In this document: piece after piece, positions 1 through 48,800 of the stretch
Layout of the letters: the number at the start of each line of letters is the position of its first letter
How positions within the stretch are numbered: position 1 is the first letter of the stretch
Virus record (IMG/VR): IMGVR_UViG_3300044829_000002
Span: 12,916 to 76,915 of that record
Origin: a virus
Lineage: Duplodnaviria > Caudoviricetes
Strand: one strand, 5' to 3'
Length of the DNA stretch: 64,000 nt
Position numbers and translations under genes: made by a program
The notes under the pieces: generated by a model
The model's database searches: none
What the model was told of the DNA's origin: nothing
The model's input: only the letters and a program-made list of their open reading frames with translations

Positions 1-12
1 ATCCCCCCTCCC

Positions 13-267
13 TCATTCCTGCGGGCCGAACATGGCCTCGTCGTGGTCGAACGCGTCCTGATCAACCTGTCGGCGAGCGGGTGCCACGGTCACACGAGAC
101 TCACCCGGCAGAGTCAAGCGGTCACCGTTGCCGAACTGGATTACGCGCACGGCACCGGGCGAGGTAATCCACACGACGTCGAGCCCGACAAGTAGCAGAT
201 GTGCTGGCGTGCCGAAACTGGTAAGCCGCATGCCGACTGTCAGGTCGTTAACGGTGATAGTGGTCAT
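13..267 (-). CDS. hypothetical protein (84 aa)
   Basis: ATG at 267 preceded by RBS-like AAGGGAGAG; ORF MTTITVNDLTVGMRL... Confidence 0.6.
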   Translation of the reverse strand: MTTITVNDLTVGMRLTSFGTPAHLLLVGLDVVWITSPGAVRVIQFGNGDRLTLPGESRVTVAPARRQVDQDAFDHDEAMFGPQE

Positions 268-272
268 GATCT

Positions 273-749
273 TCACTCTCCCTTGGGTGCTGCGAACCGC
301 TGCGCGGCGGCGCTGCGGGCTCTGCTCCTGAATGCACGCTGTGATGCTCTGATGCACGTCTTGCAACCTCGTCTAAGCCTGCCTTTCGCACCGTTGGGTG
401 CTTGCAGTACTAGATTGTCACCGCTCAACGGGTGACCCTTGGGGCAGTGAGTAACACGCGTGCCGTGGTGGCGACCCTTGTTGGCTCGATCCCAGTTGTT
501 ATCAGCGACGGTGCCGAGGAACAGATGCTCATCACGGAAGCACGGCGGGTTGTCGCAGTGATGGAGCACGCACGGTGTCTCGGGCGGAATGGGTCCGTGC
601 AGCTCGACCCATGCGGCGCGATGCGCTTGTTGCATGGAATTGCCAACGCTGATCTGGCCGTAGCCCTTTGTTGAGCGGTGCCCATCGAAGACGATGCACT
701 CGCCCTCGGAATGAGATCGCGCGGTGAGTCTGACAATCACTGACGTCAT
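273..749 (-). CDS. HNH homing endonuclease with C-terminal Cys/His zinc-binding module
   Basis: GYGQI...AHRAAW...VLHHCDNPPC...HLFLGTVADN motif, then THCPKGH...CKTC; ATGA overlap with upstream gene. Confidence 0.85.
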   Translation of the reverse strand: MTSVIVRLTARSHSEGECIVFDGHRSTKGYGQISVGNSMQQAHRAAWVELHGPIPPETPCVLHHCDNPPCFRDEHLFLGTVADNNWDRANKGRHHGTRVTHCPKGHPLSGDNLVLQAPNGAKGRLRRGCKTCIRASQRAFRSRARSAAAQRFAAPKGE

Positions 750-1009
750 CGTGTGCGCCTGCTGAATCGTTGTGCGGCGGCTGAACGCGTCACGCCTAGC
801 GGACCGGCGATTTCTTGCCACGAGAACCCTCGCACGCCATGCTCGTCGGTGGAGCGCAATTGTGCGGCAGCTTCACGCACGCCCTCAGACGCGGCGCGGT
901 CCAGCATCTTGACAATGGACGCAAAGCCCTCAACGTCATCGCTGCCAGCAGCTTTGAGCATCGCGGCCAGTTGGCGCTCCCAGCGGCGGATCTCTTCTGG
1001 CTCAAACAT
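746..1009 (-). CDS. helix-turn-helix DNA-binding protein
   Basis: C-terminal FSWQEIAGPLGVTRSAAAQRF matches the actinobacterial SWxEIxxxLGVTRQAAxQRF HTH; RBS GAGGGAG. Confidence 0.75.
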   Translation of the reverse strand: MFEPEEIRRWERQLAAMLKAAGSDDVEGFASIVKMLDRAASEGVREAAAQLRSTDEHGVRGFSWQEIAGPLGVTRSAAAQRFSRRTR

Positions 1010-1032
1010 GGCTAGCTCCCTCGGTCGGTGCG

Positions 1033-1051
1033 TGTCGTGCTGAGTACGACA
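1033..1051. promoter_or_regulatory. palindromic operator TGTCG-N9-CGACA overlapping a minus-strand -10 (TAATGT); -35-like TGTACA 17 bp upstream
   Basis: tgtcg tgctgagta cgaca, intergenic, directly upstream of the HTH gene. Confidence 0.75.
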
Positions 1052-1065
1052 TTACAGCATGAAGG

Positions 1066-1096
1066 AGCCGGTGTACAGAGGGTCTGTACACCGGCT
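1066..1096. terminator. 14-bp stem hairpin containing the GTACAG-N5-CTGTAC palindrome
   Basis: agccggtgtacaga-ggg-tctgtacaccggct followed by a T run on +; just after the ArdC-like gene stop. Confidence 0.6.
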
Positions 1097-1110
1097 TTTG
1101 GCGGGTCGGC

Positions 1111-1509
1111 TCAGATAGCTTGGTCAGTCTGCGAGATATCGAACACCGACACCAGGCGGAAGAATTTACGACCCGGCTTGGCGTCCTCGCCGGGTGTGCC
1201 GTCCAACTCGACAGTTCCGGGGGTGCCAGCGGCGGAACCGGCCGGTGCGAGAATACGCATTCCGTGCTCGCCCTTGCGGACCTGACGGCCGACTTCCTGC
1301 CAAGCCTTGAATCCGCGAACCTCAACGGCTCCGGGCATCTGCATGGCGATCAAGGCGGCGTTGCGCTCGCTGTACTTGTCGGCCATGAGGGTGAACGTGC
1401 CGTCCTCGGGGTCCATCTCGTCCATGAATGAGTCGAGACGGTTGCGCAGTGCGAGAACTTCGGCATTCTTGTCGGTGATGCTGCGGCGGGTGCGGGTCTG
1501 TGCGGTCAT
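1111..1509 (-). CDS. ArdC N-terminal (ssDNA-binding, DUF1738-like) antirestriction protein
   Basis: YSERNAALIAMQMPGAVEVRGFKAWQEVGRQVRKGEHGMRILAP...FRLVSVFDISQT is the ArdC-N signature. Confidence 0.8.
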   Translation of the reverse strand: MTAQTRTRRSITDKNAEVLALRNRLDSFMDEMDPEDGTFTLMADKYSERNAALIAMQMPGAVEVRGFKAWQEVGRQVRKGEHGMRILAPAGSAAGTPGTVELDGTPGEDAKPGRKFFRLVSVFDISQTDQAI

Positions 1510-1536
1510 TTCTGGCTCCTAGTGCTGCTCGGCGGG

Positions 1537-1589
1537 TGTCGTGCTAGATACGACAGTACGCCGCCGACTTCTGTACAGTCAAGCTGTAC
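1537..1589 (-). promoter_or_regulatory. promoter (TTGACT-18-TACTGT) with TGTCG-N9-CGACA (1537-1555) and GTACAG-N5-CTGTAC (1573-1589)
   Basis: both palindromes and sigma-70-like elements read directly upstream of the ArdC-like gene. Confidence 0.75.
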
Positions 1590-1618
1590 GGCAGACCGAG
1601 TTTCAGACGGCGCTCGAC

Positions 1619-2989
1619 TCAGGACAAGGCGAAATTACGCGGCTTGCCCGTGCGCTTCAAGACAGGCCGATCTCCCGTGTGCATCTGCCACCGACGGCAC
1701 GTCATATCCACGTATGCCGGACTGATATCCATGCCCAGCGTGAACCTGCCCGACAGGTGCCCAGCGATCACAGTTGACCCGCTGCCGACGAACGGGTCCA
1801 GCACGAGATCGCCAGGGTCGGTGAAGCTGGCGATGAACCAGCGCGGCAACTCGACCGGGAACGTTGCCGTGTGGCCCATCGTCTCGCTAGACCCGGCCGC
1901 GATGTGCAGCACGTTGGATGGCAGCGCAATACCGGACTCGGTCTGATGCGGCCCGAGCAGTCCTGACGGCCCAGCACTGCCGCTACCGGGGGTGATCGCC
2001 TGCTCACTCGGTTTCGCATTCGCTTCCGGGTCGAACTTGATCTTGTCGGATCGGGTGAAGTGCCAGACCGATTCCCACGCGTCCTTGAACATGCTCGGGT
2101 ATCTGCCAGGCACGCCGTTCTTGGTGTCAACCCAGCAGAACTCATCCACGAACCGCCAAGCCCATTCCCTCACGTGAGCTATCACAAGATCATGCACATA
2201 CAAGTCGCGCTGGCCGTTGTCGGCGTGAGCCTTGATATTGACCAGCCACGAGCCGTCGTCGGCCAGCGCGGCGGCGACGTTGGTCTGCACAGCTTCAAAC
2301 CACGCCACGTACTCGTCAGGTGGGATCGGCTTGAACCCGCTGTCCTCGTCGTACTTGCGTTGACGGGCGTAGGGCGGGCTTGTGATCGCCAGATTCACTT
2401 TCTCGCCGTCGAGCAGCTTGCCCACGTCGTCGGCGTTGCGCGAGTCACCGCACATCACGAGATTGTCACCTAGCCGCCAGATGTCACCCGGCCGGGTAAT
2501 CACCGTGACCGACGCCGGTGGCAACTCGTCCGGGTCCAGCGGCGGTTCACCGTCGAACGGGTCGGCGTCACCGATCATCGCGGCCAGCTCGTCCTCGGTG
2601 AACCCGAGATCATCGATCTCGTAATCGTCCAGCGCGCTCAACTCGGTCACCGCCTCGTGTAGCTGCCCGGTGTCCCATTCGGCTAGCTCGGCGGTTCGAT
2701 TGTCAATGATGCCGTAAGCGCGAGCCTGATCCATCGTGCCGTCGAATATCTTGACGTCCACGTACTCGACATCTTCGGCCACGCTCGCCGCCAGCCAGCC
2801 GCTCCCGGCGATCACGATCCCGTCCGGCAGGATCACGATGTTTTTCTGCTGGCCGAACAGCCTCAGCGATGCCCTGATCGCGTCCATGTTGCGAGGGGGA
2901 TGCAAACGTACGTTGCGAGGGTCAGCCAACAGGTCAGCTACCCGTCGTGCCTCTAGCTTCATCTGGGGGCGTCGCGTCTTAGGGGGCAT
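1619..2989 (-). CDS. ParB/Srx-like N-terminal domain fused to beta-class DNA methyltransferase (likely N4-cytosine); true start may be 2962
   Basis: N-terminal PRNVRLH...IRASLRLFGQQKNIVI; catalytic TSPPY; HTATFPVELPRWFI; VLDPFVGSGST SAM motif. Confidence 0.9.
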   Translation of the reverse strand: MPPKTRRPQMKLEARRVADLLADPRNVRLHPPRNMDAIRASLRLFGQQKNIVILPDGIVIAGSGWLAASVAEDVEYVDVKIFDGTMDQARAYGIIDNRTAELAEWDTGQLHEAVTELSALDDYEIDDLGFTEDELAAMIGDADPFDGEPPLDPDELPPASVTVITRPGDIWRLGDNLVMCGDSRNADDVGKLLDGEKVNLAITSPPYARQRKYDEDSGFKPIPPDEYVAWFEAVQTNVAAALADDGSWLVNIKAHADNGQRDLYVHDLVIAHVREWAWRFVDEFCWVDTKNGVPGRYPSMFKDAWESVWHFTRSDKIKFDPEANAKPSEQAITPGSGSAGPSGLLGPHQTESGIALPSNVLHIAAGSSETMGHTATFPVELPRWFIASFTDPGDLVLDPFVGSGSTVIAGHLSGRFTLGMDISPAYVDMTCRRWQMHTGDRPVLKRTGKPRNFALS

Positions 2990-3016
2990 CCTCGCATTGA
3001 ATCACCCGAGACATGA

Positions 3017-3062: not shown

Positions 3063-4070
3063 TTACTTGACGGCGAATTGCGCGAACGCGAGTTCCTTCA
3101 CGGTGCCGACGCGGTTGCGCGGCTCGGCGGAACGGGTCGCCCGGACGAGGTTCGCGTCACGCTTCGGGCCAACAGGCGTGAACCAGTCGAGGTATTCGGT
3201 GACGGCGTTGTAGCCCGCCCAGCGGGTGCCGCGAATGTTGGCCTGTGTGTCGGCGTCGGAGAACAGCTTGACCAGCTCGCCCTCGCGGCGGGCGTGAATA
3301 TTGACCGAGCGCGGCTTGGACTCGTCCTTCGGCACCGGCCAGATCAGGCGGGTTTTCTGGACGAACTGCGCCTCGCTCATCGGGGCCTGGATCATCTTCT
3401 CGGCCTCGGCCTCGAACGCACTGTCGAATTTGAACGTCAGGCCCAGCGCCCGACGGATCTCGGCGACGGCGAGCGTTGCCGACGATGTGTGCCGGACCTT
3501 GACCATCGACTTGTGATTGACGAGTGCGGCGCGCTCGGTGTTGCCGCACACGACGCGGACTGGGGTGTCGAGCAACAGCAGCGAGCCGGTGCCGTCGTGA
3601 TAGTTGAGCATCGTCAGATACCGGTTGAGCGCGTCCACGCCGCCGATCAGCATGTCCTCGCTCATCTTGGTCGTGACGAACACTGCACGCCCGCCTCGCA
3701 GCGAACCGGCTGTCTCGAACCGGCCGTTGGTTTGGCCCTTGATCGCGTCGAGGAGTTCAAGAGTCTGCTCGTTCTGGATCGGCTCCCAGACGCCGCCGAC
3801 GACGCCGAACGGCTCGCGGATCTTGGTGAACGGGTTGGAGCGGGACACGGCGTAGAACCCGTCAACGGGTGCGCCACGGTTGTCGAGCACGGGGGTGTCG
3901 TCGCGGCGTACACCCCAGCCGCCCAGGTGGCCCTCGTCTAGAACGTCGGCGGCGGTCAGGTCGCGGTCGAATGTGACACCGAGCCGATGCCAGGCCGGTT
4001 CGCGTGCGAATACGGCTGCGGATACGGTGCTGCCGTCTGCGTTCTGATGAGTCTCGATCTCGTGAGACAT
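3063..4070 (-). CDS. DUF932 family phage/plasmid protein (TIGR03299-like)
   Basis: PAWHRLG, YxPIQNE-like WEPIQNE, FETAGSLRGGRAVF, NYHDGTGS, TPVRVVCGNT, GTRWAGYNAVTEYLDW; RBS GAGAGGGAG. Confidence 0.85.
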   Translation of the reverse strand: MSHEIETHQNADGSTVSAAVFAREPAWHRLGVTFDRDLTAADVLDEGHLGGWGVRRDDTPVLDNRGAPVDGFYAVSRSNPFTKIREPFGVVGGVWEPIQNEQTLELLDAIKGQTNGRFETAGSLRGGRAVFVTTKMSEDMLIGGVDALNRYLTMLNYHDGTGSLLLLDTPVRVVCGNTERAALVNHKSMVKVRHTSSATLAVAEIRRALGLTFKFDSAFEAEAEKMIQAPMSEAQFVQKTRLIWPVPKDESKPRSVNIHARREGELVKLFSDADTQANIRGTRWAGYNAVTEYLDWFTPVGPKRDANLVRATRSAEPRNRVGTVKELAFAQFAVK

Positions 4071-4103
4071 GGTGACTCCCTCTCGGGGTGGCGTGCGACC
4101 CGG

Positions 4104-4148
4104 TGTCGCACTAGACACGACACTAGTCGCACCCTCTGACAAGAGTCA
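4104..4148 (-). promoter_or_regulatory. promoter TTGACT-18-TAGTGT, also TGTCAG-N10-TAGTGT, with operator 4104-4122
   Basis: read directly from the sequence upstream of the DUF932 gene. Confidence 0.75.
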
Positions 4149-9448: not shown

Positions 9449-10777
9449 CTACCCGAGTTTCGACGGATCGACCTTGATCGCCGCCATGATCTCTTCAATC
9501 GTGATGAACTTTGCCTCGACCCCGCCACCGGTGATCACGTCAACGGCGTCCATAGCGTGCTCGCCGTGTTTGTCGTTGAGTTGCTTGATCAACCCGCGCC
9601 GGATCTCCGAGTCTGGCTGCACCGTGCGAGCCTTCTCTGTGACCGGCTTGACCCTGTCGTTCAGGATCTCTCGCAGCTCGCGGATATTCACCTTGCGGAT
9701 CGGGATCTCCTCGCCGCCCATGCGCTCAGTCAGCACGTCCCGCGCCTTGTCGCCGAACTTCTCCACGAACGCGATCACCAGCCCGTGCCACACGTTGCTC
9801 GTCAGTTTCATGTCCGGCCGGTCACCGCTGTACTCGACCCCCTCATCGAATTTGGCGATGAACTCCTCGAACGTGCCAGGCTCGGCCTTGGGCTTGTCGG
9901 CTGACTTGCTCGGCTCGGGTTGCACGACGTCGGCTCGGGTGTGATCGTCGTCCGGCACGCTGGTCATCGTGTATGTCTGCGGCTCAGGTGTGCCGTCCAT
10001 CTGCTCCAACGCATCCGGGTCGAGATCCGTCCGCACAGTCTCGTCGCTGGCGATGCCCATTGCCAGTTGCGGGCTTGACGTCGGCGTGAACGACCACAGT
10101 CTGCGGACGGCTGTCTTGCGGCACATCGGCAGCTCAAATTTGCGCCACGGGTTGTCCGGCCCGCCGAATTTGTAGCCCGCCGAGTTGTCCCGTGCCTCCA
10201 GCGCGTCGTCATGGCCGATCGCCACCCAGCCGACGCCGGTAGAGCTGCGCGCAATGGCGTAGTGGATGATCGGCTCGCCACGCTTGCTGCGGTCCAAGAT
10301 CGGAATGTGATGCAAGCGCTCATCCAGGCCGAATTGAACCTCATGTTCCTCGTTGGAGAAAATCGTGCGCGCCGTGATCGTGACGCCAGAGCGGGCACCC
10401 AACTCGACCATTCCCCGATAACCGATGATCCATTGAGCCTCAGTGACGCGCTTTCGCTTGGACTCGTAAGGCAAAATCCAACCTTGCCCAAGAGAGGCCA
10501 CGTTGGGCCGCAGGTCGAGTTGCGCCGCTGTCATCAGCGCGCCGAGGAATGATTCCTGCGTGCATTCGATCAGCTTAGGCACGGTGCGAATGGCCGTGAT
10601 GCCGTCCCGGATGAGTCGCTTGGCCTCATGCTCACCCGGCATCGCATCCCGAAACGCCGGGAGCATCGCCTTGACCAGTTCGACCCGTTCGTCGGTTTTG
10701 CGTTTCAGCAGTCCAACCTCTTTATTTTGCGGAGCCGACATACCCACAGCAGCTCTCGCTCGATCCGTACCCGTCAT
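9449..10777 (-). CDS. recT: RecT-family ssDNA annealing protein with long C-terminal extension
   Basis: PKLIECTQESFLGALMTAAQLDLRP..LGQGWILPY...QWIIGYRGMVELGARSG; MCRKTAVRRL; downstream of YqaJ. Confidence 0.9.
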   Translation of the reverse strand: MTGTDRARAAVGMSAPQNKEVGLLKRKTDERVELVKAMLPAFRDAMPGEHEAKRLIRDGITAIRTVPKLIECTQESFLGALMTAAQLDLRPNVASLGQGWILPYESKRKRVTEAQWIIGYRGMVELGARSGVTITARTIFSNEEHEVQFGLDERLHHIPILDRSKRGEPIIHYAIARSSTGVGWVAIGHDDALEARDNSAGYKFGGPDNPWRKFELPMCRKTAVRRLWSFTPTSSPQLAMGIASDETVRTDLDPDALEQMDGTPEPQTYTMTSVPDDDHTRADVVQPEPSKSADKPKAEPGTFEEFIAKFDEGVEYSGDRPDMKLTSNVWHGLVIAFVEKFGDKARDVLTERMGGEEIPIRKVNIRELREILNDRVKPVTEKARTVQPDSEIRRGLIKQLNDKHGEHAMDAVDVITGGGVEAKFITIEEIMAAIKVDPSKLG

Positions 10778-47697: not shown

Positions 47698-48157
47698 GAC
47701 GGCGTAGATGCTCTCTCTTGAAACGCTGGCGTTCATTCTTACATGTCCGGCATGACCGCCAGCCGCGCTTGTCAACGCTAGTGTTTCTCTCATCGAATTG
47801 ATGTCCACGCAGACAGTGTGTTCTACGTTCATTCCCGTTCGTTCGATGACGCCCCTTAGTCAGGCAGTCGTGCATATTGTCAGTTTGCGTGCCGAGCCAT
47901 AGATGATCATCGGCCCAGCACGGCGGGTTGTCACAGCGGTGTAGGACGTGGGGAGTCTCAGGCGGGATTGGGCCATGCCGTTCGATCCACGCGAGGCGGT
48001 GGACAAGATAAGTCTTGCCCTTGATTCTGACTTGCCCATAGCCGTCCTGGGTCGTTGTACATCTGTCCCATACGAGGCACGGCGTGTCGAGCGGGCCACT
48101 CTGCTCGTGAGACGTCAGCAGCAGTCGGTCAGCCGAGTTCGTGGAGTCGGTCTGCAC
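47690..48157 (-). CDS. HNH homing endonuclease
   Basis: GYGQV..VHRLAW..VLHRCDNPPCWADDHLWLGTQTDN; THCLRGH..CRTC. Confidence 0.85.
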   Translation of the reverse strand: MQTDSTNSADRLLLTSHEQSGPLDTPCLVWDRCTTTQDGYGQVRIKGKTYLVHRLAWIERHGPIPPETPHVLHRCDNPPCWADDHLWLGTQTDNMHDCLTKGRHRTNGNERRTHCLRGHQFDERNTSVDKRGWRSCRTCKNERQRFKREHLRRHD

Positions 48158-48800
48158 CGCGACCTCCCGTGTTTCCTTTGGCCCCGGATTCAGCGGGCCT
48201 TATCGAGTACCGCCAAGTCTTGATGCCGCAAGCATGATAGAACCTCGCCCCTGCATCCAACATGCGGATCAGCGCCAGGTAGTCTTCGCATTCGCCGCTG
48301 AACGGCACGCGCATGCTGTACGGCTGAGGGAACCCGCCAGCCTTCCGAATCGTCGCCGTCCTCACCAGATACGTGACAGGCACGAAATTGCCGACCCTGC
48401 GCAGCCATAGCGCTTGTTTCGGCCCGAACGGAATATTGATCGGCTCAGCCACCAACTTGCCGTTGTCGTCACAGCAGGCCAGCGGGTCACGCCCACCGAT
48501 GATCTCCGGGTAACTGAACACCATGTCCGCGCCTGTCCGGTTCGCTGCCTTGACGAGCACTCGCAGATGGTTCGGCTTGAATTCGTCGTCGTCGTCAAGA
48601 AAGGCAACCCAATCCGTCGTTACTCGCTCCAAGGCTTTGTTGCGCGTGGTCGCCGCACCCTCCCGCTCCGTGTCGAGTTGGACGACGATGTCGCCGGGTG
48701 GCGCCTGCTGATTGCGGACCGAGTCCAGCGCTAATTCGAGCAAGGTCTCCCGGCCGGGAATCGTCGGAATCAGCACGGTCACATCGGATGCGCGGATCAT
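48129..48800 (-). CDS. glycosyltransferase family 2
   Basis: VLIPTIPGRETLL..GAATTRNKAL..WVAFLDDDDEF..ECEDY. Confidence 0.85.
   Translation of the reverse strand: MIRASDVTVLIPTIPGRETLLELALDSVRNQQAPPGDIVVQLDTEREGAATTRNKALERVTTDWVAFLDDDDEFKPNHLRVLVKAANRTGADMVFSYPEIIGGRDPLACCDDNGKLVAEPINIPFGPKQALWLRRVGNFVPVTYLVRTATIRKAGGFPQPYSMRVPFSGECEDYLALIRMLDAGARFYHACGIKTWRYSIRPAESGAKGNTGGRGADRLHELG

Follow-up and report, generated by a model that had tools for sequence, protein, structure and literature searches.

The stretch of DNA analysed here (64,000 nucleotides, hereafter the window) comes from a virus of the Caudoviricetes (Duplodnaviria) and covers bases 12916-76915 of the complete 76,915-bp IMG/VR record IMGVR_UViG_3300044829_000002, which has direct terminal repeats. 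The GC content is 62% and the phage probably originates from a soil metagenome. Near the start of the window three genes follow one another on the minus strand, which carries every gene within positions 1-3000. They encode a small helix-turn-helix protein (HTH), a nuclease of the HNH_3 family (HNH) and an orphan protein. The HTH protein ends in GVT-RSAAAQRF-SRRTR and the HNH protein, encoded immediately downstream, ends in RA-RSAAAQRF-AAPKGE, its terminus being RSAAAQRFAAPKGE. A sequence-only reading of this DNA had pointed out the common octapeptide RSAAAQRF and the silent differences in five of its eight codons, including the serine codon TCA versus AGC. Translation of the two segments, both on the minus strand, bore this out (Table 1). 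The copies agree at 17 of 24 bases and all seven base differences are silent. We propose that the last 14 codons of the HNH gene (RSAAAQRF-AAPKGE) may be a relic of the 3' end of another HTH allele that recombination joined to the HNH gene in frame, and we give this reading about an even chance.

Table 1. Features of the HTH-HNH locus and other positions in the window mentioned in the text.
Feature	Position	Strand	Remarks
DUF932 gene	3063-4142	-	early-type region
ParB-N/N6_N4 methylase gene	1619-2989	-	early-type region
Operator-like module	1529-1589		upstream of the ArdC-N gene; direct repeat copy at 1529-1559
Stand-alone ArdC-N gene	1111-1509	-	early-type region
Intergenic region upstream of the HTH gene	1010-1110	-	operator-like palindromes, repeated before the ArdC-N gene
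Operator-like module	1025-1096		upstream of the HTH gene; direct repeat copy at 1025-1055, hairpin at 1066-1096
HTH gene, 87 amino acids	746-1009	-	open reading frame (ORF); long helical hairpin, then helix-turn-helix
HTH copy of RSAAAQRF, residues 75-82	764-787	-	codons CGT TCA GCC GCC GCA CAA CGA TTC
HTH end SRRTR and stop	746-763	-	TGA overlaps the HNH ATG as ATGA
HNH_3 gene, 158 amino acids from ATG	273-749	-	Pfam PF13392
HNH part homologous to other HNH_3 proteins, residues 1-145	315-749	-	includes the basic helix after CxxC, IRASQRAFRSRAR
HNH copy of RSAAAQRF, residues 145-152	294-317	-	codons CGC AGC GCC GCC GCG CAG CGG TTC
Last six HNH codons (AAPKGE) and stop	273-293	-	contain AAGGGAGAG, likely ribosome-binding site of the orphan gene
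Orphan gene, 84 amino acids	13-267	-	ORF; ATG at 267, 5 nt past the HNH stop
ORF with GIY-YIG match, 227 amino acids	8004-8687	-	24.6 bits, cut-off 22.6
RecT gene	9449-10777	-	
HNH3 gene, 153 amino acids	10774-11235	-	PF13392 at 31.8 bits
Exonuclease-like gene, 386 amino acids	11232-12392	-	
HNH2 gene, 155 amino acids	47690-48157	-	inside a glycosyltransferase cluster
GT2 gene	48129-48800		its end overlaps HNH2 by 29 nt

The HTH protein belongs to a family without a Pfam model. With a profile built from three sequences we collected 208 proteins at E<=1e-3, 73 of them at E<=1e-10. They begin with a conserved MFEPxEIRRWERQL, which is followed by a long helical hairpin and, towards the C-terminus, by the HTH. 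Their tails vary greatly, and some are Cys-rich and zinc-ribbon-like (P0167, P0195). In Pfam searches the HTH protein of the window gave sub-threshold matches only (Sigma70_r4_2, HTH_AsnC and Myb, at residues 61-84), and Foldseek returned weak rows to sigma region 4 with E>1. The AlphaFold2 (AF2) model had a high predicted confidence (pLDDT 95) and contained helices at residues 4-24, 26-52, 64-71 and 75-82, with a G-V-T turn between the last two. In this model RSAAAQRF corresponds to the whole predicted recognition helix. The conserved C-terminal block of the family is LGVTR-x-A-x-x-QRF, and the nearest relative, P0002 (61% identical), carries LGVTRSAAAQRF exactly, a sequence that is conserved in the family. 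Since this block is conserved throughout the family and the octapeptide takes the place of the predicted recognition helix, the HTH copy is native to the HTH family. The echo in the HNH tail stops where the conservation of the HTH family stops.

P0002 itself was found on a small element (contigs L001 and L002) with weak Rep_1 and Zot matches, in which a convergent Rep_1-like gene follows it. These matches suggest a rolling-circle or filamentous-phage-like replicon. The presence of P0002 in an element of the Rep_1/Zot type suggests that the HTH family moves between very different mobile elements.

The HNH protein matches PF13392 over residues 41-85 with 38.9 bits (cut-off 24.8, E 6.6e-10). Its parts stand in the same order as in the HNH_3 family (I-HmuI-like), with a beta unit at the N-terminus, then the HNH core, the zinc-ribbon-like CxxC motif and the basic helix. 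It has the expected residue in each of the 19 columns that do not vary in an alignment of 24 sequences, including H63, C65, D66, C70, N84, H106, C129 and C132. We found 3152 relatives at E<=1e-10, the nearest of which is 51% identical. The phage relatives in INPHARED are distant, with at most 37% identity over the length of the protein, and their tblastn alignments span residues 1-132. With regard to the beta-beta-alpha-metal fold, in Foldseek we observed weak rows to I-PpoI and I-HmuI (E 0.03-0.09, template modelling score about 0.3).

The HNH copy of the octapeptide lies beyond this homologous part. The tails of HNH_3 proteins follow the pattern C-x2-C-x-R-x5-[FYW]-[RHK]-x-[RK], here IRASQRAFRSRAR, and then become very variable in length. 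The BLASTP alignment with the in-genome paralog HNH2 (42% identity) ends at R145, which is the first residue of the motif. After its last CxxC the HNH protein continues for 26 residues, the other two HNH_3 proteins of the phage for 16 and 13, and its C-terminal helix is 10-13 residues longer than theirs. The octapeptide sits within this extension of 13-14 residues past the part that can be aligned with relatives. In the AF2 model (pLDDT 92.9), residues 130-153 form one confident helix that continues into the tail, and a single helix fits any of the readings discussed here. As another origin of the tail we considered an internal duplication of the QRAF helix within the HNH protein and set it aside, since A, Q, R and F are all that the two units have in common and their DNA is not similar.

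A tail that repeats the recognition helix of a neighbouring protein could have been captured for its function. The HNH protein would then use the copy, for example for the same DNA or the same partner, and selection would keep the peptide identical. The exclusively silent differences between the copies and the confidently modelled tail helix agree with this, and some HNH_3 relatives do bear real C-terminal HTH modules (in the tails of P0008 and P0029). However, one helix does not make an HTH when the helix and turn before it are missing, this tail occurs in none of the HNH relatives, and a recent fusion between diverged alleles would be just as likely to leave nothing but silent differences. 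We therefore regard such mimicry as very improbable.

To judge the octapeptide against chance, we counted common 8-mers in the shuffled proteome (about 128 proteins). This gave 0.10 protein pairs per genome with any common 8-mer, and 0.015 adjacent pairs. In the real genome every other pair sharing an 8-mer consists of paralogs or repeat proteins. The expectation for the HTH-HNH pair alone is 4e-6 with the global composition and 1e-4 to 4e-4 with the local composition, the latter being generous as the local model includes the match itself. The best match to the motif among 119 HNH relatives was five of eight residues. The echo thus exceeds what chance readily gives in one window.

The competing explanation is an ordinary free-standing HNH gene, packed tightly between two genes, whose product ends in a variable Arg/Ala-rich helix of its own that by chance has the sequence of the neighbouring recognition helix. 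We hold this to be a serious possibility, somewhat short of an even chance. It would have to produce an exact match of eight residues where no relative exceeds five, with limits that fall at the edges of the HTH recognition helix and at the point where HNH homology stops. It would also have to produce an extra tail length equal to the echoed segment, and a continuation, AAP[K/R], that recurs in a member of the HTH family (see below). On the other hand, HNH_3 tails are generally basic and rich in Ala and Arg, extend 10-80 residues after the CxxC and repeatedly contain R-x-[FYW]-R, the expectation rises to 1e-4 to 4e-4 with the local composition, and some common 8-mer has a genome-wide chance of 0.1.

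A number of observations fit coincidence and weigh against a relic. The case for a relic rests on eight residues, and the HTH and HNH copies have no similarity on either flank of them. When the hidden Markov model (HMM) of the HTH family was run against the six frames of the genome it matched the HTH gene only, with nothing in the HNH tail or in any frame of positions 1-800, so no other frame conceals a longer HTH remnant. The length of the tail varies widely among HNH_3 proteins, and in the AF2 model the HNH helix runs on into the tail, confidently and without a break. The HNH protein's own SQRAFRSR helix resembles AQRFSRR of the HTH protein without homology, so convergence in such helices is demonstrably possible. 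Neither HNH2 nor HNH3 echoes the ends of its neighbours, the longest common word being four residues. HNH3 is as tightly packed as the HNH gene studied here, with a ribosome-binding site (RBS) in its last codons, and has no echo, so the tight wiring of the latter is not special. The end SRRTR is, by sequence comparison, typical of the HTH family and AAPKGE is not, and none of the HTH relatives ends in AAPKGE. Six matches to AAQRFxxPKGE were obtained when IMG/VR, GTDB genomes and 241 million metagenome records were scanned with a degenerate DNA pattern. None of the six is an HTH-family gene end, and two (L018 and L020) lie in one unrelated long ORF. Finally, once very many windows are scanned, matches as improbable as 1e-4 to 1e-5 will turn up in one of them.

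We then compared the gene ends of HTH relatives that lack a downstream HNH. These read QRF-RQR-stop in P0002, QRF-GRTVQGHCTDPTD-stop (GRTV...) in P0003, QRF-NRTI... in P0125, QRF-GKK... in P0127 and QRF-GRATS-stop in P0128. Among 148 members of the family the residue after the aromatic anchor is G (72), A (24), S (14) or R (12), and basic residues usually come next. The sequence-only reading had placed AAPKGE at the end of the ancestral HTH gene, and the evidence leans against this, as the HNH-less relatives end in QRF followed by G, S or R and basic residues, like SRRTR. Nevertheless, the ends of relatives are a weaker guide than they look, because in that model the incoming end would also stem from an HTH homolog and would hence be family-typical. 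In addition, the orphan gene has no homolog, and an HNH-less relative that keeps this gene is consequently not available for comparison.

One distant member of the HTH family, P0206, ends in QRFAAPRP and is identical to the HNH tail at 15 of 18 bases over QRFAAP. The chance that AAP equals the start of some family tail is 0.035-0.07, and for the 4-mer with K and R taken as equal it is 0.003-0.005. The proposal that the HNH tail is a displaced HTH end was thus sustained in part. The position of the HNH copy beyond the HNH-homologous part, the native character of the HTH copy and the end of P0206 support it, and a relative ending in AAPKGE was not found.

The kind of difference between the two copies also has a parallel within the family. 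Over the 24 bases of the echo P0002 differs from the HTH gene of the window at six positions and from the HNH-tail copy at four (20/24 identical), and it uses an AGY serine codon, as the HNH-tail copy does. This divergence of P0002 indicates that true HTH alleles differ in the same manner, keeping the peptide while many of its codons change silently.

Gene order was compared with L016, a 23-kb Logan contig. Its positions 1-2773 carry a DUF932 gene (60% identity), a gene for a ParB-N protein, a gene of 49 amino acids and the HTH gene P0128 (53% identity), in an order shared with the window phage. The ParB-N protein is 58% identical over its first 79 residues and its remainder is unrelated to the methylase of the window. 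There is no HNH gene after the HTH gene in L016. The resemblance to the window phage breaks off completely at the HTH stop codon, past which the genes are unrelated too. Since similarity is lost right after the HTH gene, its 3' end is a mosaic junction, i.e. a recombination joint, in this phage group.

Other contexts were less informative. No HNH gene was seen downstream of an HTH-family gene in about ten contexts, which is thin sampling, and no HTH gene of this family adjoins the HNH relatives P0005 and P0008 (two contexts, again thinly sampled). The window phage encodes no homologs of the neighbours of HTH relatives in L001, L003, L007, L011, L014 and L015. Searches of IMG/VR and GTDB genomes with the HTH protein or the HTH alignment found no related loci, and the INPHARED phage collection contained no match to the region (DNA) or to the HTH protein. 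The window was present in one public sequencing run alone, which is its probable source. The whole stretch is unchanged in a Logan contig of that run, a contig that is not independent of the source data. An HNH-less variant was not seen in the contigs of the source run, which is no evidence against the existence of such variants.

Codon usage was examined with the codon adaptation index (CAI), for which 14-codon windows of the genome give a reference of 0.68 +/- 0.12. The HNH copy was claimed to use codons with the G or C third positions typical of the genome. This holds, on eight codons only: all eight end in G or C and their CAI is 0.93, compared with 0.52 for the HTH copy. The 40 HNH codons before the motif have a CAI of 0.33-0.57, so there is a step at the motif, a weak one in a small sample. 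We also looked for a left crossover within the HTH gene by codon usage; the CAI profile was flat and no break could be called. The further claim that the HNH tail carries the RBS of the next gene agrees with our finding of AAGGGAGAG in the last HNH codons, the likely RBS of the orphan gene.

Taken as a relic of an HTH allele, the tail would have a simple history. An HTH-HNH segment would recombine out of register with a genome or segment carrying another allele (HTH') followed by the orphan gene, and the leftover 3' end of HTH' would join the HNH gene in frame. The relic would now supply the HNH stop codon and the RBS of the orphan gene, and would lengthen the HNH C-terminal helix by about three turns. 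The exchange could have been driven by endonuclease-induced repair, or it could have been an ordinary illegitimate or RecT-assisted event. The simplest route would be a single out-of-register exchange at a joint where such phages demonstrably recombine, and homing would not be needed. From the sequences we infer both the homology of the tail to an HTH end and this recombination route. What argues for a relic is that the exact eight-residue match equals the HTH recognition helix and is bounded by the end of HNH homology on one side and by the end of HTH conservation on the other, and that the next residues, AAPK, resemble the AAPR-P end of P0206. It is also favoured by the seven silent differences, which are of the kind seen in P0002, by the mosaic junction in L016, by the RecT and adjacent exonuclease-like genes of the phage and, weakly, by the rise of CAI at the motif.

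The sequence-only reading went further and proposed intron-less homing as described for fungal mitochondrial endonucleases. As a special case of a relic, a site-specific, stop-less HNH cassette would have brought its own recoded, cleavage-immune HTH end, and the displaced original end would have become the HNH tail and kept the downstream RBS. The fungal anatomy invoked is documented. Mobile endonuclease ORFs (mORFs) of fungal mitochondria occur in atp6 of Allomyces macrogynus and in atp6, atp9, cox2 and nad3 of Glomus sp. They bring a foreign version of the C-terminal piece of the host gene, and the native version is found downstream of them (PMC3630166). The duplicated ends of Glomus atp6 have 63.5% nucleotide and 91% amino-acid identity, the inserted reading frame is in phase and has no stop codon, and mobility was shown biochemically for Allomyces (PMC3630166). 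At our locus, as in the fungal hybrids, an endonuclease ORF lies at the 3' end of a host gene, and the differences between the two copies are mostly silent (here seven of seven). In the fungi a C-terminal segment of the host gene stands before and after the ORF; here a candidate segment does so, with no flanking similarity and no HMM signal. However, the fungal duplications comprise tens to more than 100 codons and ours eight. Fungal relatives free of the element carry the native end at about 91-100% nucleotide identity, whereas here none with the predicted end was found. The fungal enzymes are of the LAGLIDADG or GIY-YIG type, while ours is an HNH_3 protein and the host is a double-stranded DNA phage.

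Apart from this likeness in anatomy, homing would agree with the retention of all invariant family residues by the HNH protein, with L016 as a syntenic relative without HNH, and with the codons, which are atypical in the HTH copy and typical in the HNH-tail copy. However, an HNH gene follows in none of the roughly ten HTH-family contexts, identity to even the nearest HNH relatives does not exceed 51%, and neither P0005 nor P0008 has a member of this HTH family as its neighbour. The HNH-less relatives end like the present HTH gene and not in AAPKGE, the 24 bp are no more than a candidate cleavage site, and one out-of-register crossover gives the same structure without homing. By analogy with the fungal elements homing is conceivable, but we consider it unlikely.

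Two further systems are of interest here. T4 SegB and MobE are free-standing phage endonucleases that spread by intron-less homing (PMC2330249, PMC2790892). The HNH gene resembles them in being a stand-alone nuclease gene between two phage genes, absent from a related genome at the same place, and in being one of several such genes in its phage. Spread of this type leads to co-conversion of flanking markers. To our knowledge, it does not involve a duplicated gene end fused to the endonuclease. The second system is ShiLan, an actively homing insertion in DNA methylase genes of actinobacteriophages that hides an out-of-frame HNH (PMC11855218). There an HNH of the actinophage type is built into the reading frame of a host gene, and here one may be fused with a piece of such a frame, with neither intron nor intein in either case. 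ShiLan is located within its host gene, whose frame runs on through the insertion while the HNH uses another frame. Our HNH gene, in contrast, is an ORF of its own behind the host stop codon, and a host allele may have contributed no more than its last 14 codons. ShiLan shows that unorthodox HNH arrangements occur in such phages.

The phage carries three HNH_3 genes and one ORF with a GIY-YIG domain. HNH3 lies between the exonuclease-like gene and the RecT gene and splits this recombination gene pair. It overlaps its neighbours by ATGA at both ends, and the RBS of RecT is within its last codons. HNH2 shares 42% amino-acid identity with the HNH protein of the HTH-HNH locus and 73% DNA identity over a 113-nt core. 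It overlaps the end of the GT2 gene as well as the longest form of the next ORF, the latter by 143 nt. The 227-residue ORF matches the GIY-YIG catalytic domain slightly above the cut-off (Table 1) and is possibly a fourth homing-type nuclease gene of the phage.

The surroundings of the HTH-HNH locus are of the early type, with RecT and the adjacent exonuclease-like gene encoded a few kilobases away. A role as a packaging (terminase-associated) HNH was set aside, because the gene sits among the methylase, ArdC-N and RecT genes and not among virion genes. An operator-like module is found upstream of both the HTH gene and the ArdC-N gene. The two share a 31-nt direct repeat (81% identical) that holds the palindrome TGTCGTGCT.AGTACGACA, followed by TGTACA...TGTACA, and a perfect 14-bp hairpin is present upstream of the HTH gene. 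Within positions 1-1000 we found no consensus promoter or terminator, and from the sequence the intergenic region before the HTH gene appears to be the start of an HTH-HNH-orphan transcription unit. The orphan protein has no Pfam match and no homolog in IMG/VR, GTDB genomes or 5.8 billion proteins.

If the echo is a coincidence, the locus is that of an ordinary free-standing HNH gene in a phage with three of them, and the lesson is that short echoes in Arg/Ala-rich helices need comparative support. If the tail is a displaced HTH end, this would be an example from a bacterial virus of the gene-end duplication so far described for fungal mitochondria. It would offer a single-junction view of how the mosaic joints of phages form, and a defined 24-bp candidate target for self-immunity via synonymous recoding. 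It would also show how a selfish nuclease gene comes to be coupled in translation to the genes on either side of it.

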